Below are positions 32,401 to 57,493 of a stretch of 64,000 nt of DNA, one piece after another. The notes beneath the pieces were generated by a model. That model made no database searches. It had not been told where the DNA came from and saw only the letters and a list, made by a program, of their open reading frames with translations. The position numbers and the translations under genes are program-made. Each line of letters opens with the position of its first letter. Position 1 is the stretch's first letter. The DNA comes from Prorocentrum cordatum (taxonomy: Eukaryota), in assembly GCA_963575745.1 (NCBI GenBank), contig CAUYUJ010000130.1, forward strand, positions 1 through 64,000, read 5' to 3'.

Positions 32401-33960
32401 GCTGGCGGCCTCCTGCGGATCGATGCCTTCCCTCTCCAGCATGAGGGACAGGCACTTGAGTGGGTCGAGCTTCTCTTCGGCGGAATCCTCGACCGCGTCC
32501 TCCACGGGCGCCGTTGCTCCCCAGATCTCACTCCACTCTTGCTGCAACGTCTCGACTTGCTCACCGGGCCCCATAGGAGCCCCGTCGGGTCCTGGCTCGG
32601 GTGATTTCGTGAATCGGTGGGCTGTTCCCGCTCCGTGCTCACACGCTTCTGCAGCCCACCTCCTCCAAGCTGTGCAGCGGGCCCTCGCAAAGGCCTGCTC
32701 CAGCAAGGAGGCGAAGTAGGCTGCCTCTCTTGAATACTCATCCAGCTGCCCATCTGTCAGAGCCAGAATGCCTTCGAACGACGGGCGCCAACGTCTCCAG
32801 AAGTCAACCTCTTCGCCAGGCGGCCGACTGCCCAAGATCTTAGAAATCAATTGCATGCAATGCTGTGGGAAAAGGCATTCCGCCCGACGAGCAATGCAAG
32901 CCAGCTCCTGAAATCTAATCGAGACCTTCCTCCACCCACGAGCCGTAGCACAAGATAGAGCATGCGGGCCTCCTGAAGTCTGCAGCTCCTGCACCCTGCG
33001 CAACTTCCAGCCTTGCCCCCGACCGCGATACTTCCTCTCGTCTGGGCCCTGGATCCCATGGACCGAAATGAGTTCTGTCTCCACGAGATCATAGAACATC
33101 TGGCAAACTCGATCCAATGCTTCCTGCCCACAGCGCTCGCTCGAATGTGACGCGTCCTCTCCCCAGTGAAGAATAGCCTCCTCAATGGGCCCCCAGTCAG
33201 GCGGGGCAGGCAAGGGCAACTGCGGAGCCTGAGTTGGGAACCTCCTGGGACCTGACAGCGCCATATACTCAGTGCGTACAAGTTGTGGTCGCAACCGCAA
33301 GGCAACTGGGTAATGAGGTGTAAGACATGAGCCCTGCACTAGTTCAACTCGTTCGATTGATGGGGCTAGACCAGACGAGACCATGAAAAAGTCAAGCTCC
33401 CTCCAAACATGTCCTTTCCTGCGCGTGGCTACCCCGCATGCTGCAATATGTCCTCCCACTTTGCTAACCCAGCCAAACGTTCTGAGCTGCGATGGTGGGC
33501 AATTCCAGTCTCCGCCAACCACAAACGGTAGACGCAAAGAGCGAAGCACTTCTCCCAATCGAAACAAGACCTGCGAACCGACATCTCCCAGGGGGTCCCC
33601 TGTAGGCAAGTGCAGCGAGACAGCGAGGACCCCCCCTGGGATGATACTGTTAACCCATGCCATCGTGATCCTCGGGGCCGAAGGCAAGGGCTTCCCTTTC
33701 CACGGAGCGGCAGACATCCCAACATGAACTGGAACAGCAATGCCTACTCCTGATGATAACCCCCCCGCCTCAGTGATTCGGCAAGGACTAAACATGGCTG
33801 ACCACGACCAGCTCTTAACCTTAGCCTCCTTCTCATCCTTGGCGGAGGGGTGCACTCCCACTTCCTGCAACAAAACAACGGCCGCGCCTGCAGCCTCCTT
33901 CTCCAAGAACTTCTGACAGTTACACCAATCTGAAGCGTTGGCCGTCAGGACCGTGTACAC
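29443..33960 (-). pseudogene. LINE-B ORF2 (EN-RT-CCHC-RNaseH-Cys fingers) with one in-frame TAG at 30690-30688
   Basis: EN: LTANAS, LLQEV, GGDWN, LDFF, TPH. RT: FRPIGLL, LDLSKAYE, VAGC, AVDD. Reading through the TAG gives VCGHPWGCKKHRCYVC, in frame with RNase H (LDGS, GGEL, WTDC, KIKSH, GNREAD). Confidence 0.9.
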
Positions 33961-34120
33961 ATCGGGCCGAGCCAGCCCGTCCCTGCTACCCTCGCATTCC
34001 TGCGTTCTGAGCCGCCTGCACGGTTGTGGGCGCCAAACCTCCGCTGCTGCCTCCTCCTCCTGCAGTCGCTGCTCCACCTCCCTTTCTGCCCTTGGCCCCC
34101 CCCCCTTGCTGGCAGCAGCC

Positions 34121-35190
34121 TTAGCTGCCGCGTGCAGTTCCTCTGTGGACTTGGGGGGCCCAGGGCTCGAATCGGAAGAAGGTGTTGCCTGCTGCTGCCG
34201 GCTGAGGTGCTGCTGCTGCTGCTGCTGCTGCTGCGGCTGCTGAGGCCGACTGAGCTGGCTGCTGACGCTGCTGCTGCTGCTGCTGACCCACGGAGCCCCC
34301 AGTAGCATCGCCATCGTCACCGCCAGCTGTAAGCCCCTCCTCAGTGCGACGCTTCTTTGCTGCAAGCCTCGCTTTGAGTTCTTTTTGCTGGTTAATGGCA
34401 TCCTTGGCCTGCTCCCGAAAGGGCCCAAAAGCCTGCAGCGCTGCCTCCTTAAAGATCTTAGCCAGGTGCTCCTTCCTCTTCTTCGCCTCCTCCACCTCCT
34501 CAGCCGATGGCTCCCATCCCGCCTCCTCCAGCCCAAAAAGGCCGCCGTCATCCAACTGAACGCCTTCAAGACACCCGTCCATGAGAGACTCCAGGGATAG
34601 TACTGGCTTGGCTGGCTGAGGGGGCTGCTGGGGCTCCTGGGGCTGCTGGACTGTGGAGGCGAGCTCCCTGACAGCTGTGGCGTACTGCTCTTTGGCCCTC
34701 TCGAGGGCCACAAAGGCGTCGGCACTGTCCTTCTTCGCTTGCTCCAATGATTCCTGCAGATTCGTGGCTCTGTTGACTGCTCGATCCAAAGCGGCCTGGC
34801 ACCTCTCCATCGCCTGCTTCGCGGGCCCCCACTGCAGCTTCGGCGGCTGCTCGAGGGCACGAAGCTTCTCACGATGCTTGCTGGCAGCCTCGAAGTCTGA
34901 ATTGGCCTCGAGAAACTGGATGACCGAGTTGAGTTCGCCGTTGGTACTCCCTGGAGTTCCTGACGAAAGATTGTTAGATGCCGACCAAGTCCCAGGAGCA
35001 GAAACAAGATCCCCAACACCAGGAAGAGCAGACTGACGTGCACCCCACACTCCCTTGGCCCCCGACCGGTTATCTTGATATTCCCCGACTCCTGTCCACT
35101 GGCGCCCGCAGTGCTTGCACCACGTCCACCAGTACTCGTTCGCTTTGCACCCGCACGCCCCACAACACCAATTCCCAGCCCGAGAACCAT
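34121..35190 (-). pseudogene. LINE-B ORF1 (RanBP2-like finger + coiled coil), probably frameshifted just after the AUG
   Basis: WCCGACGCKANEYWWTWCKHCG plus a coiled coil. The first AUG after the SL (35190) is out of frame with the finger. Confidence 0.7.
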
Positions 35191-35298
35191 GCGCTGGCAC
35201 AGCGCGCCCCCGCACGCCGACCGAAGGGTGAGGCCGTGGCCCCCCGCACAGCACACTTGGCTACTCGAGCCGAGGTTGGGAAGTTAAGGAGCAGGCCC

Positions 35299-35320
35299 CT
35301 TGAGCCAAAATGGCTACGGT
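35299..35320 (-). other. Exact dinoflagellate spliced leader (ACCGTAGCCATTTTGGCTCAAG)
   Basis: 22/22 match to the DinoSL consensus. Confidence 0.97.
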
Positions 35321-37280: not shown

Positions 37281-38020
37281 CTGAAATCTGACCCCTTCCG
37301 CCCATCCGTCACCATTGCGTAGAATTATTATGCATCCGCCGATGGGTGTCCTAGCCGACCTGGATCCCTCAAGTGATCCCATCGTGTGACGCGCATCGGA
37401 GGGGGAGCAGGAGCCCGCAGATGAGCAGGATGATGAGCACGATGAAGATTAGGATGAGGACATCGGAAGATCAGGAGCAGCAGGAACAAGAGCAAGAGCA
37501 GGATAAGTGTGAGGAGCAGGGGGATGCGAAATATGGGGAAGGAAGGAGGTGGCAACGAAGAAGAACCGAATGATCAAGACACATAGCCCGCGCTGGGGAG
37601 AGAGCGCCAAACTGAACGACGCCGGCAAAACGTTGATCCTGAAATGCGGACAACGATGTAGCAGGAGCACGCTTCTCGAACGGTGGATAACGTTATGTGG
37701 GGACAGTGTCAGATTGAACGCCAGTTCGAACACTCTTGCGTGTAACATGAGTAGGTGAGATAGGTGGGGAAACAATTCAGAGCATCATGGGAGAGAGGGT
37801 CGCACTAATCATATTGCGTAATTTTGGAAGGAGAGGTACATCCCGGGGGTCGGAGTCCGAGTTGCCATGTGACCTCACAGCGAGGGGAAGTGATTTGGGA
37901 ACGAGGGGTGAAGCCGACTTTATTACCTAACAGCGAAGACTGATAGGTTTCTAGTTGACTCAAAAGAGCTCACAGATCACTCCACAGGGGGGTCCGGGCA
38001 GGCGTTGGGAGTTGCCGGCC

Positions 38021-38324
38021 GACTTGAAGGGTAGCTCTTTGGGAGATGTTACAGTATCGGGAGCATAGCTCGCGCGCCGCTGCCTTGGGCTCAAGGCACG
38101 CGCGCCCTATTTGCCCGGACACCGCGAGTGTTCGCTATGTGCTGGAAAGATCATTACATCGATCTTATCCTATCTTATCCGCCCACCCCTCATACTGTAC
38201 CTTCACAGCTACAGCAGAGCGATGGACGCTATTTGCCATCCGATGTCCACGGTCGGCGCCTTGGAATCGGATGCTATATGACAGGCTATATGCCCTATTT
38301 GAGTTACCAAGCTCACTTTCGACT
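38021..38324 (+). repeat. 5' LTR
   Basis: Direct repeat of 53815-54118, about 5 substitutions by eye. Confidence 0.93.
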
Positions 38325-41300
38325 TGGTAGCGGAGCTGGCCGCACTCTCGTGTGGTCAGCTCTTGCTCTTCTCAGCCTCACATTCTTCGGCACGATCTTC
38401 GTGACCGCCTACTACCCTGCGCCACCACTCCCAGTACATTTACGAGGATCTGTTCAAGAGCAAGAAGCTACACGAGAGGTACGACGTCTAGACGACCAGA
38501 TTGGTACCATATACGCTTCATCATTGCGTTACTATCAACCGCTCGGCAACGAGCCAATAACGCAATACCTGAAGCTAGGGCGGGGAAACCCGCCAGACAG
38601 AGCGCCTCGAAGACTCGACAAGGCGCTACCCCAGCGTGACACCGCTCATCATAACCATTCTTCGTTACACATTCTTGGGCTAATCGTTTTCGCTATCATA
38701 TGGTTCGCGCTGGGGGCAGCAATCGCACACATGCGTCGGGGAGATAACAGCACCGATGGGCAAACACATGGCCCATACTGGGACCCTCAGGGTAATGTAA
38801 CTTTTCGTGAGTACATTTACGAGGTCAACGCGTGGCTCAACGTTACAAGCGGACGTATGACGCCACAGGCCCAAGCGGCCGCAATACAACGCGGCCTGGG
38901 AGGCCTAGCGAGGACACTCGCCATGAGGGTACCGCCTGACATTATAAACTATGGTGCTGACATTGATGGGGTCCACACGGACCCAGTAACTTACATCATG
39001 TTCCTCCTCAGCATGAAGTTCGAACGCCTGGAAGATGAGCGACAGTTCACTTCCGGCACACAACTCATCGACTTCCATGTGCCTCACGGGGAACGAATCG
39101 ACGTCACTCTTACCCGATTCGAAATGGCCCGACTTGAGGCACAGTCGGTGGGATTCGACCCTCCTAACTTCCAACTGCTAACTACTATCCTATTCCGCGC
39201 CTTAGGCGTCGGCAGCCAGAAAGCCATGCAACTCTCGCAGCCACTCAACCACCAAATGCCTCGAACACAACAACAATATGATGAGTTGCTGGAAAGGATG
39301 CGTTCGGTAGGTCACCTATCCGAACGATCCCCTGGCAACGTAGGATCCGTGTTTGAAAGAGGAAGGGGATCTGGTAGTGGAAATTTCTACACTACCTTGA
39401 CTATTGAAGTCCAGCCTGGAAACGGGCCCTCAAACATATGGGCCGATGACCCAGGAGAATCCATTGCTTTATTAGCAGGGGGTCGATCACAACCAAGCTG
39501 GGCAACCAGCCCTCCTTCTAGAGAACCACAACCACACCGCTCGTTATGGGGGGAATCAAATCCCCTAACCGACGGTGTATCCACTTATTTAGGAGACGAA
39601 GATTTCGATTCCGGCACCGACACAGACACTATATCATCAGATGGTGTTGAAGCTCTAGATTGGTCAGATATCATGAATATGGATAACGACAATCAGCGTG
39701 CTGAGCATTTATTCTGGCTGTTACAACAGGCTAAGCGAAGGTGGAGGAGGTTCGCACGAAAACCAGCGCGTCGTGTTAGAAGGAGGATACGCAGAAGTTT
39801 TAAAGGAAAGGGTAACGGCAAGCGTGGTCGTCGGAGGTTGAACGGGCGAGGTATCGCGGCATTTCTCCAGAGGCTCTCAGATGAACAACATGATGAGATA
39901 TTCTTTGGGGGAAAAGGCCGCGGTAAAGGCCGTGGAGAGACCTCAGGGAAAGGCAAAGGTAGGCGGGGGAACCCGCGAGGTAGAGACGGCCAGGTTCTCA
40001 AATGTCATGGGTGTGGTAGTACCGATCATCTTGTGCGAGATTGTCCAGCGAAGGGAAATGGAAAGGGCGTGTCGTCCGAAGTCCATTTCGGCTCAAGCAC
40101 ACCATCCATTGAGTATCTGAGCCTCCAGGACTTTGAGGCTATGGAACAGATATTTGTCACATGGGTCGTTGGCATGGACAACGTTGACGAGCTCGAGGGG
40201 TATGGTCATGGATTATACGCGTATTACCTCGAGTACGTCCGCCGGTTCGTCACGGGCAGTAATGAACTCACTCCCGTGGAACACGGTACGCTCGGAAACG
40301 AGCCTCTTTCCTTCTTCGACTGGATGTTCGGGAACCCAGGCAACATCATGGCCTACGAGAGCGACGGCGAGGACACCACTATAGAGGCTTCGCCTTCCGA
40401 GGTTCAACAGAACCTCGAACCTCCGCCCGAAATCCCGCCTGGACACAGGCCTTTTCTGCTGGGAGAATATCCCCATACTATTGAAGACTTAATTGAAATG
40501 GAGTCTCAAGCATTTGTTCAGGCCTTCATTGCAGGTGAACCAGGTTCTCCGTTCATACCTCCTGGTTCGCTTGCTCCAGGCGAATATGGGCCGCGTACAC
40601 TTTTGCAGACCCTCATGTGGATGCATGAGATACTTGCAATTGCATATCCTGAGAGTCAAGAACAAATTGAAGCTGGTATTATGACAGATAATGATAATGA
40701 TGCTTGCGGTAGCTCAGAGCTACTCTTGGCAGCGTTGTCTCTCATCGACAGTATAAATCCTCAGGAAGTGCAGCGACACTTAGTATACTCCCATGGTAGA
40801 TGGCGTCGTGCCCTGGAAATGGCAATGGCTATGCGTGGTCATGATCTTCCCCCGCCAGGATGGAATCTCCAGGAGCTGGGGATGAGGCCAAACCACACGG
40901 CCATGCGTAACATTGCTAGGCAGCCTATGCTCGTCGAAGACCCTGAGCCGACGACTGCGCCTCCTACTCCAGGGCAGCCGAGTGACGGCCAGACGCCGGC
41001 CATGCAGGGAAACCTGCCTTTACCAGATGCGCCAATGGCCATCCTAATTGGTAGTTCGACATCAGAAGAAGTAGAAGGCGATGGTTGTGGGTTAGATGAG
41101 GATGACGTCACCATCCTCATGATGGACGTGACTGGTGAGGAAGAGGTCGATTTCGACCCTGATGAGTCTGAACCATCATCACCATCGGCACAAGAGCCAC
41201 TTGCGCCGAGCTCCACCCAGCAGGGAGACCTGCCTCCATCGAGCGATCCACCCGGGATCGCAGAGGAGCCTCCTCAAGCACCTCCAACGGGTGCCGCCCC

Positions 41301-44300
41301 TGCTGCATCAGCAGCCTCTTCTGATGAGAACACCAGAAGATCTCGTTCCCATACGCGCGTCAGAGGAGAGCCACATCTTCAGGCTCGACTCCCTCGTGAT
41401 TGGAGACAGGCTGGCCCAAAGGAACACGCTGCCAGAAGAGGTGGCCAGCTACTTCCATACAACGACCCACGACGCCGAAAAGGGGAACACTCGGCCTTCG
41501 GCCAGGGCAATCCTGCCTATAGGGACGGCGATGGCAGACCCATCCGTGGAGGCTATCAGCTCGCAACAAACATCCGCCGCCCTGAAATTCAAGAAGCGCG
41601 GACCCAGTTGCGAGATATTATCGCGGCTCGCAAGCAGTATAGGCCTCACGCTGCATGTGGTCCTTGTTCCCAGCCGTTCCAGAATCACAGGCCAGGATGC
41701 CCCGTTGGAAACAACGAAGGCCTGAGCCCCAACAGGGGCAAAACCCCTCCTAAGGAGGGCCATCCGCCACTTGACCCGATGACACCGGAAGAGATCGCAG
41801 CAGTGAGTAGTCGTCTCGGGATCTTGGGCCACTTGGATCCGAAAGAAGAAGAGAAATCTACTCCGGCTCCAAGGGGAATGGTAGCCATGACCCAGGAAGA
41901 GAAAGACGCGCTCTTTAGTCTTCCTGGTATGCGAGGAAACTCGCCTGGCGTATCTAGCCAGTCCCAACAACCAGAGCCGATCATCGAGGACGAGACAAAG
42001 GCTCAACGTGTGGCGGAAGATGAGGAGCGTATTCAGACAGTAGATGAACGCACACGCGAGGCAACTCGCAAGATGCTGGAGGATTCCAGCAAGCTCTACA
42101 TAAAGGGGGCTAGAAAGCCCCCACTCCCACTAACTTCGAAGGCCAAGAGTGAACCCCCGACACCTAAGCCGCCTCCGGCGCCGAAACGCACAGCTCCTAT
42201 ACCAGCATCTGTGCCCAAGCAGCAACCCCCGGACCCCACTGAGGAACGAAGACGTTCGCTTAGCCGCAGCAAGTCCATTGCGGAACGGGCGGCAGCTTTC
42301 GAGCGCAGTGAGTATGCACCTGCGCCAGCTTCGCCTGTGGCGGCTCGTTCCAGGAGGTCCGATGAAGGTGCTATGTCGAGGGGTAACTGGGTGCCGAAGA
42401 TCAGGGGCAGCGCCAGTCGCGCATCTCCGCGGGGAAACCCGCCAGGCGCTGCTGCCGCAGCTTTCTCCTCTTCAGGAGCCGCAGCCTCTTCAGCAACAGC
42501 GGCTCCGATGCGGGGAAACCCGCCAGCAGTTCAGCTGCACCACCCAGGAGACACATCCTTCACTAGTGGGACTCCAGATCTGATCAGGGATAGACTGGCA
42601 CTTCGGAAGCTCCCACCGATACGTTCGGTGGATGAGCCATTCATGAAAGAATGCAGGAAGGCCGGAATTCTTTCCAGATCCAATGATACTCTTAAAAGGT
42701 TAAGCAAAGCTATCAGCAGGATCTGTAGACATGCGCCAGATAAGCCACATAATTCTGTGTGGCGCCTGAAATCTTTTGATGATCATGATGGTTGGATCAA
42801 CCTCGTGGACCTCGTGGAGAACTTTCCTTGGAACACAAGTCACTCGAGGCACGCTTATGAAGAGGCCAAAGTTATTAGCGAGCAGTTGTATGGTCGCTCG
42901 GTTGACCAACTCGCAGCCATCATGATGGAAGTTGTTCATGTTCGTGAACCAGACGGAGAAGAAAAACAGCGCCTTCAATTCAAGGTGCTAATGCGGGACT
43001 CTGGCGAGCCTGCTATCTTCGTCCGCGCCTCTCAGGGGCATTCATGGAAATTGAAAGCTCCATGGTCGCTGTACAGCTACATTGTACTGTGCGACGAACC
43101 CGCCGGGAGACCGGCCAAATACCCTGAAGTCGCCATGCATGGCACTCGATGGCACGCTTTCGAAGGCATTATGTGGCACGGCCTGTCCTGTAGACCTGAG
43201 CACAACACGATGAAAACGGGGACAGGCCGTTCACACATCCACTTCGTGCCGACATTGCGCCGCCGTGCCGTGAACAGTGGGTGGGACCCAGAATCAGACA
43301 TCATCTTTGTAGATTGGCGCAAGGCCATACAAGATGGTATAAAGTTCTGTTGGTCCGATAACGGAGTCCTCTTGTCCGAGGGAGATAACGGTATCATTGA
43401 ACCGTATTACATTTCCCATGTAGAGGACCTGACCACTGGAAGGCAATGGCGCAACCCAGAATATTTGGGGATTCGCCGTGCGCGAGTCTCTGTCAGTATG
43501 ATGACTGCCCCAGATAGGTGGGCTGATGTTGGTGATTCCAGCGTTAAGTACAAGTGGTCCCGAGACCAAGAGGGCGTTGATCCAGCCATGGTCTACCTCC
43601 ACAGGGACGTTGGGGACCACTACAGCCCCACCCAGCTGGGAAACCAGCCTGAGATCTTTCGGATCTTTATGATCACCGAGAGTGAGGCCGGGAGCGCGGC
43701 TCCAAGCCGTGCCCCAAGCCAAGGGCCGAGCGCCGTATCTTGGCAGGCCATAAGTACTTCAGACCTGGATCAGATTGCAGCTGCGCTGAACCCTGACCAG
43801 GTAGAACAGCTGGCGGACAGGCTGTACCAGCAGGACCCCTGGGCCGCAGGCCAGGGAGCCATGTCCGCTATGGCCACGAGAAATCGTCAAGCCATGCAGG
43901 GAAACCTGCCTACAAGCGGACCTGCTCGGTTCGAGCCAATGCACGCAAGCCCCACACAGAGCATGCACACTCCAAGGGGCATGACTCCAGCGGGCACTCC
44001 GCCAGCACAATCCCCATTTGGGACACCTGTTCGCCCTGCAGTAAACTGCACACTCATGGAGAGGTTAGCTGCGGCTAGGGCTGATCACAGCACAGCCCTC
44101 CTCAACATGATGCCGCCCGGCACGCCAACGAGTCAGCAAGGAAACCTGCCTGGTACACCAAGCCACCGCAGGGCAGGTATACCCGACGACTATCGCTCAA
44201 GAGTGGCGGCCGCGGTACAGCAGGTGCAGAACCATAATCTGCCTCACCCAAGTGGGCAGAGGTGGAGGCCAGCCTGGTCCTGGGAACCGGAGGGTCCCAA

Positions 44301-45441
44301 CCCACGGGACCCCGCTCGGCAACGAGCCTTTATCCCGGCGTTCAACGCCCATCCGAGCATGTCTCAGGGCCAGAGGCCACCACCCACGCAGATGAATCCG
44401 CCATTATACACTGACGGTACAAGGGTCCCGAACAAATTTGTTCGGGAATTGGCGGATCAGATGCATAACCTCACCAATGCGCGCTGCAGTGACCACTCCA
44501 TGTACCCGCACATGGCCTTCATGCCTCCTCCAACATCACCAGAGGTGGTTGTACAACCCACTGCCCATTCAATATCGTCTGGCAGTAGGGGCGTGCCTGA
44601 CTACATCAGGCAGACGCACCACACTCAGCAGGCATGTTTCATGAGGAGGCAGGCGGTGCAAAGTGTACGGGACCAGTCACGTGCAGCTGCACTCGATGTG
44701 GCGCGGAATAGGGGCTCACCTTTGCGAGGAAACTCGCCCGCCGTGACTCCTACCACTTCCATGCCAAATGTCGAAGGGCCGGAGGTGATGGACCTAACGG
44801 GGACTCCCCCATCAGCCTTCATGCCCTCCGAGACGGTACTGGAGAGGCAGCGGCGGGTATATCCCAGGGTAGCAGACGTAGAAGTCTTTACTGGGATGGA
44901 GGACACCTGTGCAGTATGCCTCGAAGAATTTCAGCCCAGGGATAGTGTGTATCGCCTGAGGTGCAATCACCTATTCCACGAGGGATGCTGGAATTCTAAC
45001 GTGGTGGGCCACGTGACAAACCAGCGTGAGGGAGATCCACAGCAGCCACCATGTGCGATCTGTCGTGCACTTGGCATTATAACATCGTCCTTCCCATGGA
45101 CTGGCTCCCTTAGTCAGACTCCCGAGCAGTCAATGAGGGAGCTGCGGGAGCTAAGGAGCATGGTGGAGGAGATGACGGCCAGGATGCTAGCTATGCAGAC
45201 AGCTTCGTCACACCAGCAGGGGCACCTGCCTGAAGAGGTAAGGCCGCCTATGGCAACGGGATATTTCGATCAGCTTATCCCGATGACGGCGCCTCAGCAG
45301 GGAAACCTGCAGGATACTCCTCAGATGTCTCCCAGAGTGGAGGCGAGGTTGAGATGTCATTGGACCCTGATCAGCTGCGCGAGTTGCGTGTACGACATTT
45401 CCAGAATCAGATGGATAATACACACACAACGTTTATGCTAG
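38128..45441 (+). CDS. Giant Gag-like ORF (2437 aa): 2 hydrophobic helices, Gag core, Arg-rich tract, CCHC knuckle, Tpt1/KptA domain, RING-H2
   Basis: Uninterrupted ORF with zinc knuckle CHGCGSTDHLVRDC at 40003-40044. The true start is uncertain (in-frame ATGs at 38278, 38290, 38731). Confidence 0.85.
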   Translation: MFAMCWKDHYIDLILSYPPTPHTVPSQLQQSDGRYLPSDVHGRRLGIGCYMTGYMPYLSYQAHFRLGSGAGRTLVWSALALLSLTFFGTIFVTAYYPAPPLPVHLRGSVQEQEATREVRRLDDQIGTIYASSLRYYQPLGNEPITQYLKLGRGNPPDRAPRRLDKALPQRDTAHHNHSSLHILGLIVFAIIWFALGAAIAHMRRGDNSTDGQTHGPYWDPQGNVTFREYIYEVNAWLNVTSGRMTPQAQAAAIQRGLGGLARTLAMRVPPDIINYGADIDGVHTDPVTYIMFLLSMKFERLEDERQFTSGTQLIDFHVPHGERIDVTLTRFEMARLEAQSVGFDPPNFQLLTTILFRALGVGSQKAMQLSQPLNHQMPRTQQQYDELLERMRSVGHLSERSPGNVGSVFERGRGSGSGNFYTTLTIEVQPGNGPSNIWADDPGESIALLAGGRSQPSWATSPPSREPQPHRSLWGESNPLTDGVSTYLGDEDFDSGTDTDTISSDGVEALDWSDIMNMDNDNQRAEHLFWLLQQAKRRWRRFARKPARRVRRRIRRSFKGKGNGKRGRRRLNGRGIAAFLQRLSDEQHDEIFFGGKGRGKGRGETSGKGKGRRGNPRGRDGQVLKCHGCGSTDHLVRDCPAKGNGKGVSSEVHFGSSTPSIEYLSLQDFEAMEQIFVTWVVGMDNVDELEGYGHGLYAYYLEYVRRFVTGSNELTPVEHGTLGNEPLSFFDWMFGNPGNIMAYESDGEDTTIEASPSEVQQNLEPPPEIPPGHRPFLLGEYPHTIEDLIEMESQAFVQAFIAGEPGSPFIPPGSLAPGEYGPRTLLQTLMWMHEILAIAYPESQEQIEAGIMTDNDNDACGSSELLLAALSLIDSINPQEVQRHLVYSHGRWRRALEMAMAMRGHDLPPPGWNLQELGMRPNHTAMRNIARQPMLVEDPEPTTAPPTPGQPSDGQTPAMQGNLPLPDAPMAILIGSSTSEEVEGDGCGLDEDDVTILMMDVTGEEEVDFDPDESEPSSPSAQEPLAPSSTQQGDLPPSSDPPGIAEEPPQAPPTGAAPAASAASSDENTRRSRSHTRVRGEPHLQARLPRDWRQAGPKEHAARRGGQLLPYNDPRRRKGEHSAFGQGNPAYRDGDGRPIRGGYQLATNIRRPEIQEARTQLRDIIAARKQYRPHAACGPCSQPFQNHRPGCPVGNNEGLSPNRGKTPPKEGHPPLDPMTPEEIAAVSSRLGILGHLDPKEEEKSTPAPRGMVAMTQEEKDALFSLPGMRGNSPGVSSQSQQPEPIIEDETKAQRVAEDEERIQTVDERTREATRKMLEDSSKLYIKGARKPPLPLTSKAKSEPPTPKPPPAPKRTAPIPASVPKQQPPDPTEERRRSLSRSKSIAERAAAFERSEYAPAPASPVAARSRRSDEGAMSRGNWVPKIRGSASRASPRGNPPGAAAAAFSSSGAAASSATAAPMRGNPPAVQLHHPGDTSFTSGTPDLIRDRLALRKLPPIRSVDEPFMKECRKAGILSRSNDTLKRLSKAISRICRHAPDKPHNSVWRLKSFDDHDGWINLVDLVENFPWNTSHSRHAYEEAKVISEQLYGRSVDQLAAIMMEVVHVREPDGEEKQRLQFKVLMRDSGEPAIFVRASQGHSWKLKAPWSLYSYIVLCDEPAGRPAKYPEVAMHGTRWHAFEGIMWHGLSCRPEHNTMKTGTGRSHIHFVPTLRRRAVNSGWDPESDIIFVDWRKAIQDGIKFCWSDNGVLLSEGDNGIIEPYYISHVEDLTTGRQWRNPEYLGIRRARVSVSMMTAPDRWADVGDSSVKYKWSRDQEGVDPAMVYLHRDVGDHYSPTQLGNQPEIFRIFMITESEAGSAAPSRAPSQGPSAVSWQAISTSDLDQIAAALNPDQVEQLADRLYQQDPWAAGQGAMSAMATRNRQAMQGNLPTSGPARFEPMHASPTQSMHTPRGMTPAGTPPAQSPFGTPVRPAVNCTLMERLAAARADHSTALLNMMPPGTPTSQQGNLPGTPSHRRAGIPDDYRSRVAAAVQQVQNHNLPHPSGQRWRPAWSWEPEGPNPRDPARQRAFIPAFNAHPSMSQGQRPPPTQMNPPLYTDGTRVPNKFVRELADQMHNLTNARCSDHSMYPHMAFMPPPTSPEVVVQPTAHSISSGSRGVPDYIRQTHHTQQACFMRRQAVQSVRDQSRAAALDVARNRGSPLRGNSPAVTPTTSMPNVEGPEVMDLTGTPPSAFMPSETVLERQRRVYPRVADVEVFTGMEDTCAVCLEEFQPRDSVYRLRCNHLFHEGCWNSNVVGHVTNQREGDPQQPPCAICRALGIITSSFPWTGSLSQTPEQSMRELRELRSMVEEMTARMLAMQTASSHQQGHLPEEVRPPMATGYFDQLIPMTAPQQGNLQDTPQMSPRVEARLRCHWTLISCASCVYDISRIRWIIHTQRLC
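38325..38336 (+). promoter_or_regulatory. Primer-binding site TGGTAGCGGAGC, probably for initiator tRNA-Met
   Basis: Begins immediately after the 5' LTR. TGG pairs with tRNA CCA, and TGGTAGC fits the 3' end typical of eukaryotic tRNAiMet. Confidence 0.8.
42691..43425 (+). CDS. TPT1: RNA 2'-phosphotransferase (Tpt1/KptA/TRPT1) domain within the Gag ORF
   Basis: Motifs in order: LSKAISRICRH, DGWI, KQR, VRASQGHS, HGT, GL, RSHIHF, IFVD...DGIKF..SDNGVLLSEG..G.I.P.Y. Confidence 0.9.
44908..45066 (+). CDS. RING-H2 (C3H2C3) finger within the Gag ORF
   Basis: CAVCLEEF...LRCNHLFHEGC...PCAICR; all eight ligands present. Confidence 0.88.
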
Positions 45442-46947
45442 ATGCCAATAATCCTGAAACTGATAGTCCGTCGTTAGACCTATCAGAATCCTCAGCGGCG
45501 TCAGCAGCAGCAGCCAGAGCCGTCAACATCTCAGCGGCGAATGAGGAGTTCGAGGAGTGGCTGCGGTACCGGGATCACGTCATGAACGAAGGGCTGCAAG
45601 ACATCGCCCTTCACTCGTACCTAGCGCTGATAAGGCGCACTACCCGCGAGCAGTATATGAGCATACGTGATGAGTATGCCAACTGGCGGGGGGAGCGTGG
45701 TGATCACGCCCAGCACGTGTCGTACTTCCAGTACATTGACCTGGCACGCATGGCCGAGAGCGAGTCGCATGCCAGTGTCGTGCGGGGTAACCCGCCAGGG
45801 AGTGCGAATGTGCCGCGGGGAAACCCGCCTACCGACGCAGCCGACACTTCAGAAACTGTGCACATCAAGCAGCCGAATAAGACGTTCTTGGATGATGGTG
45901 GAAATTCCATACTCATCGACGTCGGTTCGAAGATCAACATCATGGGCGAGAACACGAGCCGTAAGTTCGTTCAGGTTGCTGAGTCACATGGTCGTGCATG
46001 TACATTCGAGCCCCGCTCTCGTTTGCATATCAACGGAGTGGGAGAGGGGTCGGCCCCAGCGGATACTGCAGGCACATTTAGCATTGCCTGCGAGTACCAG
46101 GGGTCAGCCCAACACGATTCATACAAGACGAACATTGTGTCAGGCTTTGTCCTGTTTTGAATTTCTATTGCCGGTCCTGTTCTTTGTTTTTTGTGTTGTG
46201 GTCTTGTGGACGTTGGTTTTTTGTTTTTATGCATTCTGTTGTGTTCTTGTCGTTGTTCTTGTCTTTTTGGGGCCCCGGTTTTGTGGAAAGGACCTGCCAG
46301 CCATCCTAGGTCTCGATAGTATGCAGGACAAACGCACGATCATCGTGCTTGAACGAGGCCAGGAAAAGCTGATATTCCCGGGTAAGGGGCAGGTCAAGAT
46401 GGAGCTCCCGGAAGGCTCCAAAATCATGCCGACGACGAAGTTGCCGTCAGGGCATCTGTCGATCAGGTGTGATCGTTTTGGAGCTGCGGGGCAACCCGCC
46501 TCGAGCTCAAGCAGCACGTCCTTCCAGACAGCGCTGACAGGCGAGCCGACCCCAGCGCAGGAGCGCAATCAATTGCAGGGAAACCTGCCCCAGGGGGTGA
46601 TGGAGACGCTCGCCAAGGCCACCATGCGAGGCGACAACATCGACGATCTCGAGACGTTCGAGTGTTTTGTTGCCAGGACACTGGCCCTGCATGGTGGTAG
46701 TGTACCCATGGACGCTGTGCAGTCCCGCCGTAAAATAGTGATGGGATACACTAATCGTGAATTGCATACGGTCAGCGACGCTAGGTCCAAAGGCGCGCTG
46801 AAACAGTTGATGGATAATCCATCGATGCTGACAGCATTTGCGGAGCAATCCGCCGCTGAGGCCACGGCGCGCTGCAGCGCTGAGCTCCAGCATCTGAGGG
46901 AAGCCCAGATGTTGGCAGATATTGTAGGCACATCTTCTTCATCTTGA
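45354..46947 (+). pseudogene. Aspartic protease region, interrupted by a 136-bp T-rich insertion (46146-46281)
   Basis: ILIDVGSKINIMG (Asp at 45918), HINGVG and PAILGLDSM. Removing the insert restores NIVSG-CGKDLPAILG in frame. Confidence 0.8.
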
Positions 46948-48336
46948 AGATGGCAGGGCGACGTCGCCCCCTCGTCGTCTTGCCTGATGGCTGAAAAGCC
47001 GGGGGGTAACAAGGACAGCGGGGCAACCTTCCTTAGTAAGAGGGCTTTTGTCATTGAAGATACGAGGGAGGCATGTGCCGACCTCCGCACACGAGGTTAT
47101 ATGTGTGACCGTATTTCCCACAACGAACTTATGACAAGCGTGGGCACAAACTATCTAGGTGCGGTGATCAGTGGAGATTACACTCTCATATGGATCAGTA
47201 CTCCGGGTGACTGGTATATACGAACTCCAGGAAAGAGAGTGGCCCCACACTGGTCACGTATCCAGAACCTGTTGGTAAAAGCCAAGAAACTCCGCATGAA
47301 AATCATCATATTCGGTCCCCCAGGATATGTTTGGAAGTTATCTCCAGTACGTGATACTCTGGAAGATCTAAAGTTGTCAGTAATACTGATGCGTTTGTGT
47401 CATTTCGGTATTCGGTTCAATATGCAAGACAATACACCAAGTGGTACATATATGCAGGTAGCATCATCGATACCGATTAGCTCGAAGCTGTGGACATGTA
47501 CCTGTAAGCAGGCCATACCACAACATGTGTTGGACTGGTACGGCCATACGGTACGACATGCTGAATGGCGGGCTCAGACACGTACTACACTCATCCGTTA
47601 CCTAAACGACAAAATCCTGGGGAGTACCACCACGCACGGAAACGTGCCCGTATACTTAGATACGTATACACGTACAGACCATAATACTCGTCATTACGTG
47701 ACTACTCATAAAGGAGGACCAAAATGGTCTGAAGTTATCCGACGTGTAACAATCAACTTGGATACCAACGCGGTTATTCAAGATATCTCAGTTACCGATC
47801 AACCAACAGGGTATGATTGGCATGCACCATTACCTGCAGGGGTTGCCAACATCAGTACTCGGTTGTATTGGCAACCCGAGAAACCGGTCTTGCTCGGAAA
47901 CGAGCCTACTCAATCACCACAGAAACATAGACGCGTCATCATAGATGACTGTTCTCTCCCCCTCCCGACTCTGGCGATTGACGCATGTACCCATTCCACC
48001 ACGACAATGAGTACACAGACCGACGAACAAAACGAGCAAGCTTTACCCACTGAGTTGCGTATAAAGCAGAAGGAAAGGCTCAAAGCCGAAAAGGAAGCAG
48101 GCATCAAGCCTCGCCGCATTAAAAAGCACGTCGAAGACGGAAATGACGATTGCGGCGACGACTTGTCAGGACTCGGACAGGATCTTATGGCAACCTGGAG
48201 TACTGACGCCCCTGTCGAGCTGATAAGCTCCGACGAGGGCGAGGACCTGTTCCTTGCCCCCCCCACATCTATGCCCGACACACACGCTGACATATACAGC
48301 ATAGTTGCTACACTATGCTATGGCCATAACAATTGC

Positions 48337-48960
48337 GTGGATATGTTGGAGCTTTGTGGTGGTGAGGGTGGCATCTCAGAGCTTGCCTTCTCAAGGGGAC
48401 TGTCCTCAGGCGGCAACTTGGACAAGACTACATATGTCGACCTGGGAGACCCCTCGGTGCAGCAGGTGGTAGATCACTACTTCAAGATATGCTACGTACG
48501 AGTTGCCATACTGCAACCCAGCTGCCGCACCACAGGACCACCATCTTACTATAACTACAAAGTCAACTATAACACTTGGGAACAGCACCACAGAGAAGAC
48601 TTACCACACATAATCTATTGTGGTAGAATTGCTGTTACCCAAGATGACGCTCAGAGGTGGTTTATACGCGAACAACCGACAGGAACATGGGTGGACGATA
48701 TTTCTCCATGGACGAAGCTTACCGACCGACCACACATCACGACCGTACGCATTGATCAATGCGCTACTGGACTTAAAGATACGACTGGTGACTATATTAA
48801 GAAGCCGACAAATATCACCAGCAACGACAAGACAATTCTTTAACCCTTTGAGCGACTCAAGTGCAACGGTCAGCATGTGCACGCACAACCGTGCAACACC
48901 GAGCTTTCACTGGCACAAAAATACACTCGACGACTGCAGTCTGCCTTCGTGGAAGCCGTC
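48337..48960 (+). pseudogene. Cytosine-C5 DNA methyltransferase-like domain (in-frame TAA at 48841)
   Basis: MLELCGGEGG (motif I-like), ILQPSC (catalytic PC-like), FIREQP (motif VI-like), DQC..GL, KKPT, C.G.H.H and AQKY. Confidence 0.65.
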
Positions 48961-49740
48961 TACTTGGCGAAAGCCATTGACACCACGCGCGGAAACGCGC
49001 CTATAAATACTGCACATGCTTATCCTGCCGACCTTCCTGAGCAAGCTGAACTAGGTGAAGGTATGAGACGCATCGGTGATCGTATCATCCCAAAGGTGGC
49101 TACGTGCCCGGCATGCATCGACAACGTCCGAAAGGACAGTCCTAGCCATAACAGGGACCCTACGCAGTGCAAATATCATGACTCTATCTCTGTATACTGG
49201 CCATGTCCAGCATGTCAGAGGGATCTTACGAGAAGCAAGGGTGTTAAGAATCACCTTGATACCGAACCTGGTAAATGTCGTTTTGCTGAACCATTTAAAC
49301 TACCAGACGACCACGACCCCGAAGGCAAAACCGTGCCAGCTTGGTGGGAACCCTTACCTAAACCTGGTGAGGGCCAAGCTTCAGCTTCAGGTGGCCGCCA
49401 AGGCGCACACGCCAGGCCACCACGACCACGTTCCTTCGGTAACGTCGATCCGACATCTGGTACCAGCAGCTACGACCTGCTACGACACGCCCCCGAGCGT
49501 GAAAACACGCCTTCTGCGTCTTCTAGCGATACGCCACAGGTAGCGGCCCGCCGCGGACGTCTACAAGGCGTACCACCACCTCCAGACGCAGTCAACACAG
49601 GGGATCAACTACGCAGAGCTACAAGGAACCCCCTTGCCTCCACCGGCTCTGGGGCTCCACGACTACCCGACTGGACGAGATTTGACATCCAACACAGTCT
49701 ACAGAGTCTCCGTAGTCACGAACCCCATGTTGTGAAAAAA

Positions 49741-50420
49741 GGAACTCCGAAAACTGCATCTGCGATGGTATCATGCGAAGGAGCCAAAGATGAGGCTAAT
49801 CCTCGAAAAGGTGGGGCTTGATAACGTTCGACTGAACATGATCAAGGAAATATGCGACACCTGTCGGGAATGTAGAGCATGGGAACGTCCAGGAAACTCG
49901 ACATTACCATCGGTAAGCCTCCCTGGCAACTGGCTCGATGAAGGGGAAATGGACCTCATGTTTTACAAGAAACGGACCATATTTCATGTTATGGATCGTT
50001 GTATTCGCTTGACAGCAGGCCTTGAAATTTCCGACAGAGAACGCGACACAATCATCGATGCCTACCACTACTGCTGGATTGCCTATCACGGACCCTTCAA
50101 AGTTTTATACTCAGATGGAGAAGGCGCCCTGAATAATGAGGCCGCTAAAAGCATGATGGCCAATAAGGGCGCGGAACTTCGTATCCGAGCACCGGGCCAA
50201 CACGCGACTTCAATTGAGTCACGAAACGGCATTCTCAGAGGCGTCCTCCACATGATTGAGGAAGAATTGAATACACACAACATCCCTGTTGTATTCACTA
50301 GAGTATTGGCGGAAGGCATCTTCGTTACTAATGCGTTTACGTTTTATAACGGAGTATCGCCATATCAGGCACAAACAGGACGTCAGCCCTCCTTCCTTCC
50401 TGATCTCGATACCCTTGACT
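49741..50420 (+). CDS. Integrase (HHCC + DDE core)
   Basis: Upstream of the track ATG, the frame reads ELRKLHLRWYH...CDTCREC. Core motifs EMDLMF, YSDGEG and IESRNG. Confidence 0.85.
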
Positions 50421-51759
50421 TTCCCAAGGGACCCGAGACTTCAGGACACGAACGAGAACGTCGTGTAAGGGAAGTCAGCCTCGAAGCCATAACTCAGGCT
50501 ACTGCTGTAGCCAAGACAAATCGGGCTCTTAGGGCGAAGACGACTCCTGATGGTGCTCGCCTCTACTCATCAGGGGATTTGGTCGACTACCACCGACCTA
50601 CTGCCACCAAGGACGACCATGGAGGCTGGAACGGCCCATTCCCGGTGATCCGAAACGTGCCTGTAAGAGGACATATTGTTGTCAAGGCAGGATCTCGTGA
50701 GGTAATTGTGATGTATCCTGATGCTCGTCACACACTATACATCGAATGTCTCCTCACGCGGGAACTTGGCATGGATAACATGGCCATGCAAACCGTCCTT
50801 GCCTATGTGGCACATCTCAGTGCAGGGAAACCTGCCAAAGTTTTCGGGTATATTCCCGACTACAAGGGAAACCTTAACCTGTCAGACGATAGCAAGTTTC
50901 ACCCGCGCGCACACCTAGCACTACAGTATCTCGTACGAAATTACTTCAGAGTGGAACATGTAGTAGCAGTTCGATTGGCTAAGAGTGTGTCAAGCCTACC
51001 TGCAGTAAAGTACGCCACCGGGTCTACGCTGATCCACTATGACAATGACATTAGCCCGGCGTTCCACTACTATGAATGTGTGGGCACCGGCCTAAACATC
51101 TCTCAGATTACTGGTAGCACTCACTCCAGACTTATTCAATGCTTGACTTCACGTGTCCCTTCCTTAGGATTTCACGATGACCTGGCTAAATATCAGCATC
51201 CAAGCAATACGTCTGGAGAACACGAGTCGCCTGGAAACAGGCCTTCTCCAGACACACCAGATGCTTCATCGCCTAGCGAAGGCCGTCTGTCGACAATCTA
51301 CGAGGAAGATGAGGAACACAATATCGAAGCCATGATGCTGGAAGAGTGGTACGACGAACTACGTATGGACCTTCATCCTACGACGATTACAGATGATTAT
51401 CTCTATTGCGTCCCAACAACTATGCTGCCTAACCAATGCGTTTTGGTTTCAGCATTTGCGGACGAAGATGATATTACATCATCAGATATGCTCGGAGACG
51501 AGCCTAGATTATGTGAGTCTTGTCTGGTATCTCTTTGTTCGAACACAAACGACGAGAGCTATTCCCTAGACAGTGATGAATATGGTCCTTACGTTGAACT
51601 ATGCTTTACATCAGAAATGTCAAAAATAGTGTTGGATCAGACCCAACTTGCACAGCTCGATACCGATATGGTCGCAACGATGAGAGTATATGTATCCAGT
51701 GCTGCTAAACGTGCTGTGGTTGTCAAAGAAGATGACCTACTGACCAAAGCCGACATAGC

Positions 51760-53355
51760 AGCACATCCAAAGGAGGTTAGTGAAGCCTTATATACTGAGC
51801 TCAAGATCTGGATTGATAACCGATGCTTTGAGATGTACGACTTATCCAAAGCTTCCAACATCATGACATCCAGATATGTATACAAGTGGAAGTTCGTAAA
51901 GATGGGCACCGAGAACGTTAAAACCATTCGTCTCAGATTGGTCCTTCGTGGAATTATGGATACTGAGGCCTTTGATGTGGAAACATTCTCGGGAACCGCC
52001 CGAAGGCAGTCTCAACGACTCTTGGCAAGTGAAGCGGCATGTCATCCAGAGTGGATCTTAGCATCCATGGATATCGATAAGGCATTCCTAAAAGGTTTGA
52101 CCTACGAGGAACTTGCCCATGCCACTGGCGAGGAAACTCGCATGGTCTGCTTTACTCTTCCACCAGGAAGCGCTCAGGTACTTCGTGCCCTACCCGGCTT
52201 CTCATCCTACGACGAAAGTCGACGCTGTCTTAGGTGCCTCAAACCAGGAACGGGTACTAAGGACGCCCCAAGAGCGCTCTTTCTCAAATTCGTACGACCA
52301 CACGAGCTATAGGACTTTCACCGACTAGCTACGATCCTGAATTTGAATTCAGCCAATATCTTCTGACTGCAAAACATGTCGATGACATTAATATGACAGG
52401 TCTAGAGAAAAATATCGACGACTATGTACAACGCGTCGAAAAGGTTTTTGGCAAATGCAAGCTCAACAAGCACACATATACGAACTGTGCCGTCCGCTAC
52501 ACTAAGAATGATCAGGGAGATGTGATCATGGACCTGGACGAGTATATCAAACAACTACGTCCCATCACACATCCAGAACTTACAGGAGCGGCGGCCGACG
52601 CCAAAGCCACGAAACTTATTACCGACATGTTCGTCAGCCTGCGAGGAGCCCTCGCCTATGCCCTTCTTATTCAAATCTGGCTTATGGTATATGTGGTCTC
52701 TCTTCAGAAAATTCAAGAGCCCACCAATTTACAAGTCAGCCGTTTGAATGCTGTGACGCGAAAGCTGATCAGCAGTCCGAAACGTATCACCTTCCCTCGG
52801 ATGAAGCCGACGAATGAAGTCGACATCCATAGCGATTCGGGATATCGGAAGCTTACCGGGGAGGAGGATGACGAGACCAAGGGCTACGGCATTCGCGGGG
52901 CCAACGTACTACGGCGAGGAAACTCGCCTCAAGGCAAGTCCGTCGTTCGTGACGGACAATGCAAATCACACCGATTACAGGTGAGGTCCAGTTATGCTGC
53001 GGAGGCACTTGCAGCCGCACATAAACTTGATGAGTGTTACCCTACGCTCATTACTCTCCATGAGCTTAAGGCAGGGGCCTTGACTCCACGACAACTACGA
53101 GATATGCGTGAAGTTGGAGGCCTTGCTATCAAAGTCTCTCTGACCATAGACGCTGAGTCCGTCTACAAATATTTATCAAGCAGGGATCTCAAAATACCCA
53201 CAGAACGGACTCTGCTTGGACATATCAGTTGGATACGTGAGCTTATGGATATAGGTATAGTACATAACGTGCAATGGTGTGATACTAGGGATATGACCGC
53301 AGATGGGCATACAAAGGGAAGCATCGATCGGGAGCTGCTTCTGGAAGTGATGTAA
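51760..53355 (+). pseudogene. Copia-type reverse transcriptase and RNase H (frameshift near 52285)
   Basis: RT: SRYVYKWK, RLRLVLRG, MDIDKAFLKG, GTKDAPRA, then in the next frame KHVDD (~52375). RNase H: HSDSG, RSSYAAE, IDAESV, WCDTRDMTADGHTK. Confidence 0.9.
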
Positions 53356-53814
53356 GGCACTCAGTCATTTAAGTATGACGTGAAGCAATTTGTTCCCTTT
53401 CGGGGTCCCGAGGACAGAGACAAACCCAAGTCTAATCAATTTTAGTCTGTCCTTGTTGCCCTCGCGGTCCAGTTTGCCAGCACGGGCGCCTATTATAAAG
53501 GCGCCCCTTTAGCTGCTCGGAAACGAGCCTTATATTTCACGCCTGGCAACGAGCCGGCTTCGTACAACTCAGGCTCTTTGCCTTAATACACATTTGCTTG
53601 GTGAGGTATGGCTTAATTTTGGCTTACCTCTAACTGAGCCGATAGCCCTTCATTGTTTGAAGGGGCTGTCCTGTATTTGCGTGAAATACTTTGCGAGGAA
53701 ACTCGCCTTACATTCTGGCGTTTGGCCAGTTTGTACGCACTGTTTTCATTTCTTTGCAAACAGTCGTGCGCGCGAATTTTGCGTGCGACTATGCTCTCCG
53801 TCTCCTCCCCTCCC

Positions 53815-54118
53815 GACTTTAAGGGTAGCTTTTTGGGAGATGTTACAGTATCGGGAGCATAGCTCACGCGCCGCTGCCTTGGGCTCAAGGCACGCGCGCC
53901 CTATTTGCCCGGACACCGCGAGTGTTCGCTATGTGCTGGAAAGATCATTACATCGATCTTATCCTATCTTATCCGCCCACCCCTCATACTGTACCTTCAC
54001 AGCTACAGCAGAGCGATGGACGCTATTTGCCATCCGATGTCCACGGTCAGCGCCTTGGAATCGGATGCTATATGACAGGCTATATGCCTTATTTGAGTTA
54101 CCAAGCTCACTTTCGACT
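53815..54118 (+). repeat. 3' LTR
   Basis: Direct repeat of 38021-38324. GGCC flanks the element on both sides (38017-20, 54119-22), a possible TSD. Confidence 0.93.
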
Positions 54119-57476: not shown

Positions 57477-57493
57477 TGTGTGTTTATTATTAT

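Follow-up and report, generated by a model that had tools for sequence, protein, structure and literature searches.

The window analysed here is a stretch of 64,000 nt from the dinoflagellate Prorocentrum cordatum (GenBank assembly GCA_963575745.1, contig CAUYUJ010000130.1, positions 1 to 64,000 of the forward strand). It contains a long terminal repeat (LTR) retrotransposon of ~16.1 kb that encodes, within one long reading frame on its + strand, a domain of the Tpt1/KptA RNA 2ʹ-phosphotransferase family. The element is Ty1/Copia-like, since the integrase precedes the reverse transcriptase (RT) and the RT is of the RVT_2 type. From sequence comparison and structure prediction we conclude with high confidence that the domain is of genuine Tpt1/KptA type, and that it is a stable polyprotein module of a multi-copy 16-kb Copia-like family in a dinoflagellate, located between a zinc knuckle and a RING finger and upstream of the protease, integrase and RT parts. 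The module is, by the same judgement, very probably old and under selection.

The Tpt1/KptA domain and its host element

Together with flanks that are common to its relatives, the Tpt1/KptA module occupies 42550..43440 on the + strand, as delimited by Pfam, by sequence matches in the Protein Data Bank (PDB), by a structural model, by Foldseek and by homology to the metagenomic protein P0152. Translation of 42691-43425, the range given in a preliminary description of this DNA, yields 245 residues without a stop. The Pfam family PTS_2-RNA (PF01885) matches 42694-43383, corresponding to residues 1554-1783 of the enclosing frame, with an E-value of 6e-21 and 75.7 bits (cut-off 26); the match spans positions 4-177 of the 177 in the profile. 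With the domain as query, phmmer finds human and mouse TRPT1 in the PDB (7yw3, E 5.7e-11; 7yw2, E 5.4e-9). A profile of alignment A3, whose 83 rows comprise the window domain and its homologues (77 rows being ordinary Tpt1), finds 13 PDB Tpt1/KptA sequences at E ≤ 1e-5. An AlphaFold2 model made from A3 has a mean pLDDT (predicted local distance difference test score) of 86.9 and a pTM (predicted template-modelling score) of 0.83. When this model was compared with the PDB by Foldseek, all 21 matches with E ≤ 0.001 were Tpt1/KptA structures; the top match was again 7yw3 (E 7.8e-12, TMt 0.76), and the first four had TMt values of 0.72-0.78. Model and matches fit the two-lobe Tpt1 fold, in which a winged-helix RNA lobe is combined with an ADP-ribosyltransferase-like NAD+ lobe. 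A Pfam search and a structure prediction, two of the checks proposed in the preliminary description, thus came out in favour of the domain.

That description had listed a complete Tpt1 motif series, including the catalytic tetrad Arg-His-Arg-Arg as defined in the available part of PMC6333775, and every motif is present where it was placed. The first two tetrad members form the Arg-His pair at 42727..42732 (+ strand, as for all motifs of the domain), which aligns with the RH of TRPT1; in A3, the Arg is found in 66/83 rows and the His in 67/83, with a gap in 12. The third member is the Arg of Lys-Gln-Arg at 42964..42972 (Lys and Arg each in 82/83 rows). The fourth is the Arg of Arg-Ser-His-Ile-His at 43228..43242 (81/83 rows), a motif that is preceded by a clade-specific insert (LSCRPEHN...). 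In the numbering of the model these residues are R26, H27, R107 and R193; they occupy conserved columns and align to the tetrads of TRPT1, RslTpt1 and CthTpt1. The HGT motif lies at 43138..43146, and its His (H163 in the model) is found in all 83 rows; in solved Tpt1 structures, HGT contacts the adenosine ribose of NAD+ (PMC6333775, available part). RASQGHS and a eukaryote-type NGVLLSEG..G...P.Y end complete the series. The GC content of the domain (0.519) and its GC3 (0.57) are inside the range of the remaining frame, so composition is uninformative on the age of the capture.

The LTRs of the element lie at 38019..38324 (5ʹ) and 53813..54118 (3ʹ), both on the + strand. Each is 306 bp long; BLASTN aligns them at 98.4% identity over the 306 bp, with starts 15794 bp apart. 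Directly after the 5ʹ LTR, a 12-mer with TGG first (38325..38336, +) was read from the sequence as primer-binding-site-like; it may resemble the tRNA-iMet primer site of Copia-type elements. A stop-free frame of 2468 codons (38035..45441, +) begins inside the LTR, has its first post-LTR ATG at 38731, and holds a Gag-like part, the Tpt1 domain and the RING finger. Hence, the domain is intronless, in frame and between LTRs, as had been claimed. It had also been placed inside a Copia Gag open reading frame. This holds in that the domain is inside the coding frame of the element, but it is not in Gag proper, lying ~880 residues past the zinc knuckle. In relatives, the frame runs into a protease-like segment, and pol is one frame; the domain is therefore better regarded as a module of a Gag-Pol-type polyprotein. 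The knuckle itself, a perfect C-x2-C-x4-H-x4-C of retroviral type, was located by regular expression at 40003..40044 (+, frame residue 657), and Pfam zf-CCHC families match it at E 0.005-0.009, under their cut-offs. No Gag or capsid Pfam family matched, and a single-sequence model of 38731-39990, an attempt at the Gag fold, was unusable (pLDDT 39.7).

Downstream of Tpt1, the long frame encodes a second accessory domain, the RING finger, at 44902..45066 (+; zf-RING_11, E 1.4e-8, 34.7 bits, cut-off 27). The protease-like segment at 45234..46160 (+) is in a frame that differs from the long frame; its motif, ..LIDVGS.. at 45918, reads D-V-G-S rather than D-T/S-G. Between this segment and the integrase is a conserved polyprotein region of ~930 codons without an assigned family (46948..49740, +), with in-frame stops just upstream of it (46945-46947) and inside it (48841-48843). 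The region has no Pfam match, and the best ESM Atlas score for 46948-48843 was 0.88, with no named family. It aligns, across the stop at 48841, with the pol relatives P0179, P0188-P0190 and P0192 at 23-43% identity. The integrase-like part (49757..50230, +) was recognized by regular expression from an H-x4-H-x26-C-x2-C finger and a candidate D..D-x34-E; Pfam rve has no match there. The RT, of the RVT_2 (Copia) type, was identified at 51821..52386 (+) by Pfam and by translation. Near 52290 a frame change interrupts it, its H-V-D-D motif lies at 52375-52386, and its RVT_2 match is weak (51821-52111, E 4.3e-6, 27 bits, under the cut-off of 31.6). At E ≤ 1e-20, 21 pol relatives were found; the best are 48-54% identical, and PF07727 is annotated in 8 of the 21. 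These relatives are unbroken across the frame changes of the window near 49735 and 52290 and across the stop at 48841-48843, and the frame breaks coincide with insertion/deletion differences to other copies in public runs. Given this continuity of the relatives, the window copy is a slightly decayed member of a family with pol as one long frame.

Conservation and age of the module

The most distant view of the module is provided by P0152, a protein of 1379 aa that fills a metagenome contig of 4295 nt. P0152 is 36% identical to the long frame over 996 residues (E 5e-160), with homology starting at frame residue 1506. The order of parts is the same as in the window, namely upstream tail, Tpt1, linker, RING and then the protease-like segment, here in one frame, and P0152 retains R-H, K-x-R, R-S-H, QGHS and HGT. 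A direct search for proteins of 1357-4319 aa with a Tpt1 region returned none; P0152 sat in a cluster with a 239-aa representative. Since distant relatives keep Tpt1, the domain is probably a working part of the element. The preliminary description had argued for long residence from a hairpin, typical of the element, inside the domain. That hairpin is real (43102..43115, +; 5-bp stem and GAGA loop, encoding P-A-G-R-P-A), and long residence is supported, because a relative of 36% identity keeps the domain in the same place and because the variable stretch that links the two lobes of Tpt1 is where the hairpin is found.

The domain is not confined to this copy. In a survey of public runs, 20 runs match part of 41500-45500, with no RNA run among those listed, and the contigs of four of the 20 (X1, X2, X3 and X8, representing three organisms and one marine metagenome) were aligned to 38000-54200 at a likeness of at least 80%. 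With the element divided into 30 bins, it is fully covered in all four runs (30/30 bins each). The contig pieces of the four runs number 25354, 8999, 2709 and 668, and their identities range from >99% down to <90%, a spread that points to a family of many copies, some of them old and others young. Every one of the four runs has pieces inside the domain or bridging its 3ʹ border (X1 record 5, X2 record 10, X3 record 21 and X8 record 27); X8 record 27 covers 43055-43350, within the domain, with 31 differences. Other copies have two insertions in the domain, one after 42855 (+15 nt) and one after 43298 (+3 nt), and both are in frame. The domain is thus found in four runs, in protein fragments and in P0152, and the catalytic columns are kept. 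Neither of the outcomes that the preliminary description had named as refuting its reading, namely no PTS_2-RNA match or a neutrally evolving domain in this copy alone, was therefore obtained.

An exhaustive HMMER search of 1.84 billion representatives gave 613 matches at E ≤ 0.001. P0002 (45% identity, E 4.5e-38) is at the top, together with short fragments of 53-86% identity, some of which reach into the non-Tpt1 flanks of the window (P0017, 81% identity; P0005, 51%); P0171 is 72% identical to the window domain. The closest fragments (P0003-P0007, P0017 and P0171; 55-86% identity) are labelled in EukProt as 'Pyramimonas sp. CCMP1952', a green alga, while the window has a dinoflagellate leader motif. 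The label could mean contamination, mislabelling or horizontal spread. The 102-aa fragment P0007 has 26 residues of the element pol (frame 49736-52312) joined straight to the Tpt1 N lobe, and is, judging by this junction, a rearranged copy or an assembly chimera of that data set. The remaining close fragments come from ENA metagenome contigs. JGI metagenome contigs yielded no confirmed locus with alignment and single-protein queries, and IMG/VR yielded none.

There are 31 strongly conserved columns in A3 (≥85% in the 77 ordinary Tpt1 rows), and the window domain retains 27 of them; one of the four that are changed is the start-Met column. Overall identity of the window domain to the majority residue is 41.5%. 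P0002 retains 27 of 29 strongly conserved columns. In a quick maximum-likelihood tree of 82 A3 rows (the partial P0015 was left out, and long-branch warnings were issued), the window domain, P0171 and P0002 form one clade with an SH-aLRT support of 92, and a branch with support 97 separates them from 74 ordinary Tpt1 rows. P0011 and P0014 fall on the same side of that branch but outside the clade. The split implies that the capture is old or that the domain evolves fast; recent copying from a host gene is ruled out.

Several observations weigh against a working module that is shared by the whole family. Between the window and P0152, identity in the Tpt1 core (47.5%) is barely above that in the linkers (42-43%); the RING finger (frame residues 2281-2360) stands at 50.6%. 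The pol frames are broken in the window copy, which is therefore probably not autonomous. In X1 and X2, the summed contig depth over ~40.2-45.6 kb is lower than over pol, depth not being equivalent to copy number. One X2 contig joins 42526 to 45836 via 37 other letters and so skips Tpt1 and RING. This contig is weakly supported (1 contig, a 21-nt side, depth 27.7); it suggests that some copies of the element may lack both domains. Each end of the skip closely follows one of two identical hairpins (42510-42523 and 45815-45828).

Possible functions of the module

What is the function of a Tpt1 domain in a retrotransposon polyprotein? Taken as a whole, the evidence is best explained by a module that removes 2ʹ-phosphates from the RNA of the element itself, an explanation that we put forward tentatively. 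Fungal- or plant-type tRNA ligases leave a 2ʹ-phosphate when they join 2ʹ,3ʹ-cyclic phosphate and 5ʹ-OH ends. Element RNA that had been cut to give such ends and then rejoined by a tRNA ligase would carry the same mark. The Tpt1 domain, being made with the polyprotein, would be placed beside the element RNA and would run on it the canonical two-step reaction. Once the genomic RNA template or the primer tRNA had been freed of its 2ʹ-phosphate, reverse transcriptase could read through. In the available part of PMC6333775, Tpt1 is described as passing an internal RNA 2ʹ-phosphate to NAD+ in two steps. The tetrad arginines that are tied to step 2 (the equivalents of RslTpt1 R16 and R64) are retained in every member of the clade that covers them. 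Viruses offer a precedent among RNA-based mobile elements, with Tpt1-like folds in the replicase polyprotein of a nidovirus, in a baculovirus and in giant viruses. Because the step-2 arginines are kept throughout the clade, we prefer removal of 2ʹ-phosphates from template or primer RNA as the likeliest single function, although our confidence in it is limited.

Other features of the domain sit less easily with canonical activity. At 43285..43287 (+), the window has an Asp (Asp212 in model numbering) at the Arg position of the 'SGxR' motif, where 72/83 rows of A3 have Arg. The replacement extends across the clade: P0171 shares the Asp of the window, and P0002 has Val. A profile alignment to solved chains shows that this column corresponds to Arg137 of RslTpt1 and adjoins Arg139/Arg140 of CthTpt1. 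In the parts of PMC6333775 that are available, these arginines cage the phosphates of NAD+, and Arg137 of RslTpt1, although important, lies outside the tetrad. According to the same source, the R137A mutant accumulates the 2ʹ-phospho-ADP-ribosylated intermediate, has no activity at 0.1 mM NAD+, and barely complements yeast. Hence, with an Arg of the NAD+-phosphate site replaced in the clade, full canonical activity cannot be assumed. A run of three arginines, 7-9 residues upstream of Asp212, might compensate. Within the domain, conservation is lowest in the RNA-binding N lobe, which is 24% identical to P0152 as compared to 47.5% for the core, and which carries inserts. Given this divergence, the domain may act on another substrate than ordinary Tpt1 does. 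In addition, HGA replaces HGT in the Pyramimonas-labelled fragments P0003 and P0171.

The altered NAD+ site is also a point in favour of the main rival explanation, that the domain performs a one-step reaction, transferring ADP-ribose from NAD+ onto the 5ʹ-phosphate ends of the genomic RNA or cDNA of the element. We consider such end capping unlikely but well worth weighing against removal of 2ʹ-phosphates. Up to the time of integration, an ADP-ribose cap could conceivably, and with a similarly low probability, protect the ends against exonucleases, end sensing or end-joining. The clade is without the Arg whose alanine mutant accumulates an ADP-ribosylated intermediate, and structures of KptA with 5ʹ-p-ADPR-DNA (9lda and 9ld6) are among the Foldseek matches. 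A Tpt1-like fold is also found in the polyprotein of an animal nidovirus, and animals are not known to form RNA junctions with a 2ʹ-phosphate. The top PDB matches are mammalian TRPT1. ADP-ribosylation of 5ʹ-phosphate ends has been described for several members of the Tpt1 family (PMC6182162, PMC12678800 and PMC12170183, each available in part). On the other hand, the step-2 tetrad arginines are kept throughout the clade, and an enzyme that only caps ends might not need them.

A further explanation is that the domain acts on host molecules. It would serve in counter-defence or host manipulation by undoing or imitating ADP-ribose or phosphate marks on RNA or tRNA, or by consuming NAD+. Tpt1 has RING as its neighbour, both accessory domains are conserved in P0152, and Tpt1-like folds occur in several kinds of virus. 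RING could be a second host-directed module. However, the sequence holds no pointer to a host target, and the conservation of the two-lobe architecture and of the RNA-phosphate tetrad favours a nucleic-acid phosphate as substrate. We regard a host-directed role as improbable.

Slightly less probable still is a domain that is catalytically weak or dead and has been kept as an RNA-binding module or structural spacer. Loss of the NAD+-phosphate-caging Arg across the clade, the diverged N lobe with its inserts, and HGA for HGT in two fragments would all be consistent with lost activity. Nonetheless, the 27 strongly conserved columns that the window retains include the whole tetrad, QGHS and HGT, and P0002 is conserved to a similar extent (27/29); with the catalytic residues held at such divergence, a mere spacer is unlikely. 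Finally, we reject the very improbable explanation of a neutral passenger, be it a one-off capture of TRPT1, an assembly chimera or a host gene beside the insertion: we found no point in its support, the domain is in frame between LTRs and occurs in four runs at varied identities, P0152 has the same order at 36% identity, the clade stands apart from 74 ordinary Tpt1 rows, and the catalytic columns are conserved well above background identity.

We also propose, as a more speculative extension that we think has less than an even chance of being right, that the element depends on an active Tpt1 for retrotransposition. This would then be the first NAD+-dependent enzyme modifying nucleic-acid phosphates in the life cycle of a retroelement. 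It may work with the ~40 strand-specific hairpins of the element described below: a pathway of the tRNA-ligase type, in repair or unconventional splicing, would rejoin element RNA that had been cut, and the resulting 2ʹ-phosphates would be erased by the element itself, or the ends capped with ADP-ribose, before reverse transcription.

Comparison with known systems and further features of the window

The domain resembles cellular Tpt1/TRPT1/KptA proteins, such as human TRPT1 (7yw3) and Clostridium thermocellum Tpt1 (6e3a), in fold, tetrad, QGHS and HGT, and its end is of the eukaryote type. Cellular Tpt1 is a free-standing protein of ~180-250 aa, whereas that of the element is a module in a frame of more than 2400 codons. 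The clade of the element further differs from cellular Tpt1 by inserts that lie in the N lobe and ahead of the fourth tetrad residue, by Asp or Val in place of the caging Arg, and by a long, separate branch. A Tpt1 domain was also found at the C-terminus of P0027, a JGI metagenome protein of 1700 aa, where it is of the ordinary type. The N-terminal part of P0027 has, by eye, a kinase P-loop and H-x-T motifs as in tRNA ligases, and the protein may be a ligase-Tpt1 fusion.

Other selfish elements have their own Tpt1-type folds. A Foldseek search of BFVD found Tpt1-like folds in viruses with E-values from 1.6e-12 to 9.8e-8; the carriers include Hyperionvirus, Sylvanvirus, Bodo saltans virus and Neodiprion sertifer nucleopolyhedrovirus. 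Most of these viral folds are separate genes, in contrast to the LTR retrotransposon polyprotein of the window. A parallel in arrangement is a nidovirus of Botrylloides leachii, an element with an RNA genome, in which the Tpt1-like segment (E 1.3e-9) is part of the replicase polyprotein 1ab and hence, as in the window, a polyprotein module.

Several retrotransposon lineages have acquired accessory domains, including a chromodomain, a DnaQ-like exonuclease and, in orchid Ty3/gypsy elements, an AlkB-type demethylase (PMC6338049 and PMC9289625, both available in part). DNMT domains have been described in dinoflagellate retrotransposons, along with abundant Symbiodinium Copia elements that lack a DNMT domain (PMC5890265, in its available part, in which the words phosphotransferase, Tpt1 and KptA are absent). 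As in the window, each of these cases involves a host-type enzyme that is fixed in a retroelement polyprotein and conserved in a lineage; none is Tpt1/KptA. The SmTCL1-4 elements of Symbiodinium microadriaticum are Ty1-copia-like; they have LTRs, RNase H and an integrase that precedes RT, and one of them is ~10 kb long (PMC5776459). They share the integrase-before-RT order and the LTRs with the element described here, a likeness that is by description only, and PMC5776459 mentions no Tpt1 or RING. In the literature searched, which excludes subscription journals and Repbase/Dfam, we found no Tpt1/KptA domain in any retrotransposon; where the name 'tpt1' came up in papers that were checked, it stood for the tumour protein TPT1. 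The element therefore probably represents an LTR retrotransposon family with an accessory enzyme of a kind previously unreported in that literature.

What is the significance of such a family? Retrotransposons rarely fix new enzyme domains, and each known case (chromodomain, AlkB, DNMT) has exposed a step of the conflict between element and host. A conserved Tpt1 module implies that RNA 2ʹ-phosphates or ADP-ribose end marks matter in reverse transcription or in the life of the particle; to our knowledge, the role of either in retroelements has been studied by nobody. The clade is a diverged, natural group of Tpt1 with an altered NAD+ site and RNA lobe, and as such is material for enzymology. 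It also provides a link to Tpt1-like domains in baculoviruses, giant viruses and nidoviruses, which have so far lacked an explanation. More generally, Copia-like elements of dinoflagellates can be giant multi-module polyproteins, here with Tpt1, RING and a conserved region of ~930 aa.

The hairpin inside the Tpt1 domain belongs to a set of 40 GNRA-loop hairpins (stem ≥4 bp) on the + strand of the element (38546-53698). The - strand of the element has 1, the + strand outside the element has 5 within the window, and mononucleotide shuffles of the element contain 2.3 ± 1.4, with a maximum of 7. Most of the hairpins follow the pattern GC-N-N-G / GNRA / C-N-N-GC, with covarying middle pairs, and within the long frame most encode G-N-x-P. 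The hairpin peptide PAGRPA is also found in P0003 and P0004, and P0171 has PAGRSA. P0152 has 11 G-D/N-x-P motifs, and three of six aligned G-N-x-P motifs of the window are at or beside one. Rfam gave 0 matches at gathering thresholds over 37500-54600, and we found no literature on GNRA hairpins in retrotransposons. The hairpins could be dispersed signals for packaging of the element RNA or for protein binding.

At the borders of the element, GCCGG, a candidate target-site duplication, is present at both flanks, where it matches only with a 1-nt offset. The tract ahead of the 3ʹ LTR (53770-53812) is pyrimidine-rich on the + strand, where an LTR element would be expected to be purine-rich. No other copy of the element, even diverged, was found elsewhere in the window. 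The 5ʹ flank (37923-38021) recurs at 55123-55221, 1 kb past the 3ʹ LTR, with 99% identity, and at 57493-57591 with 63%, and dense GGCTGA-type tandem repeats surround these recurrences (54000-58500). The recurrence of the flank among tandem repeats indicates that a repeated unit of ~2.3 kb is the site of the element. An X2 sequence joining 38021 to 54120 was considered as an empty site and rejected, since it matches the flank paralogue and is not a true empty allele.

Lastly, the window was searched with the 21-nt motif of the dinoflagellate spliced leader. It has two exact occurrences and one with 3 mismatches, as compared to 0 in 100 shuffles, a result that supports a dinoflagellate as host. 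These relict motifs are on the - strand, at 21263-21283, 35299-35319 and 22181-22201. The motif at 35299 is just upstream of a 1531-codon frame on the - strand (30688-35283) with an Exo_endo_phos match (E 4.5e-7). Frame and leader together suggest either a LINE-like element or a transcript that was retroposed with its leader.

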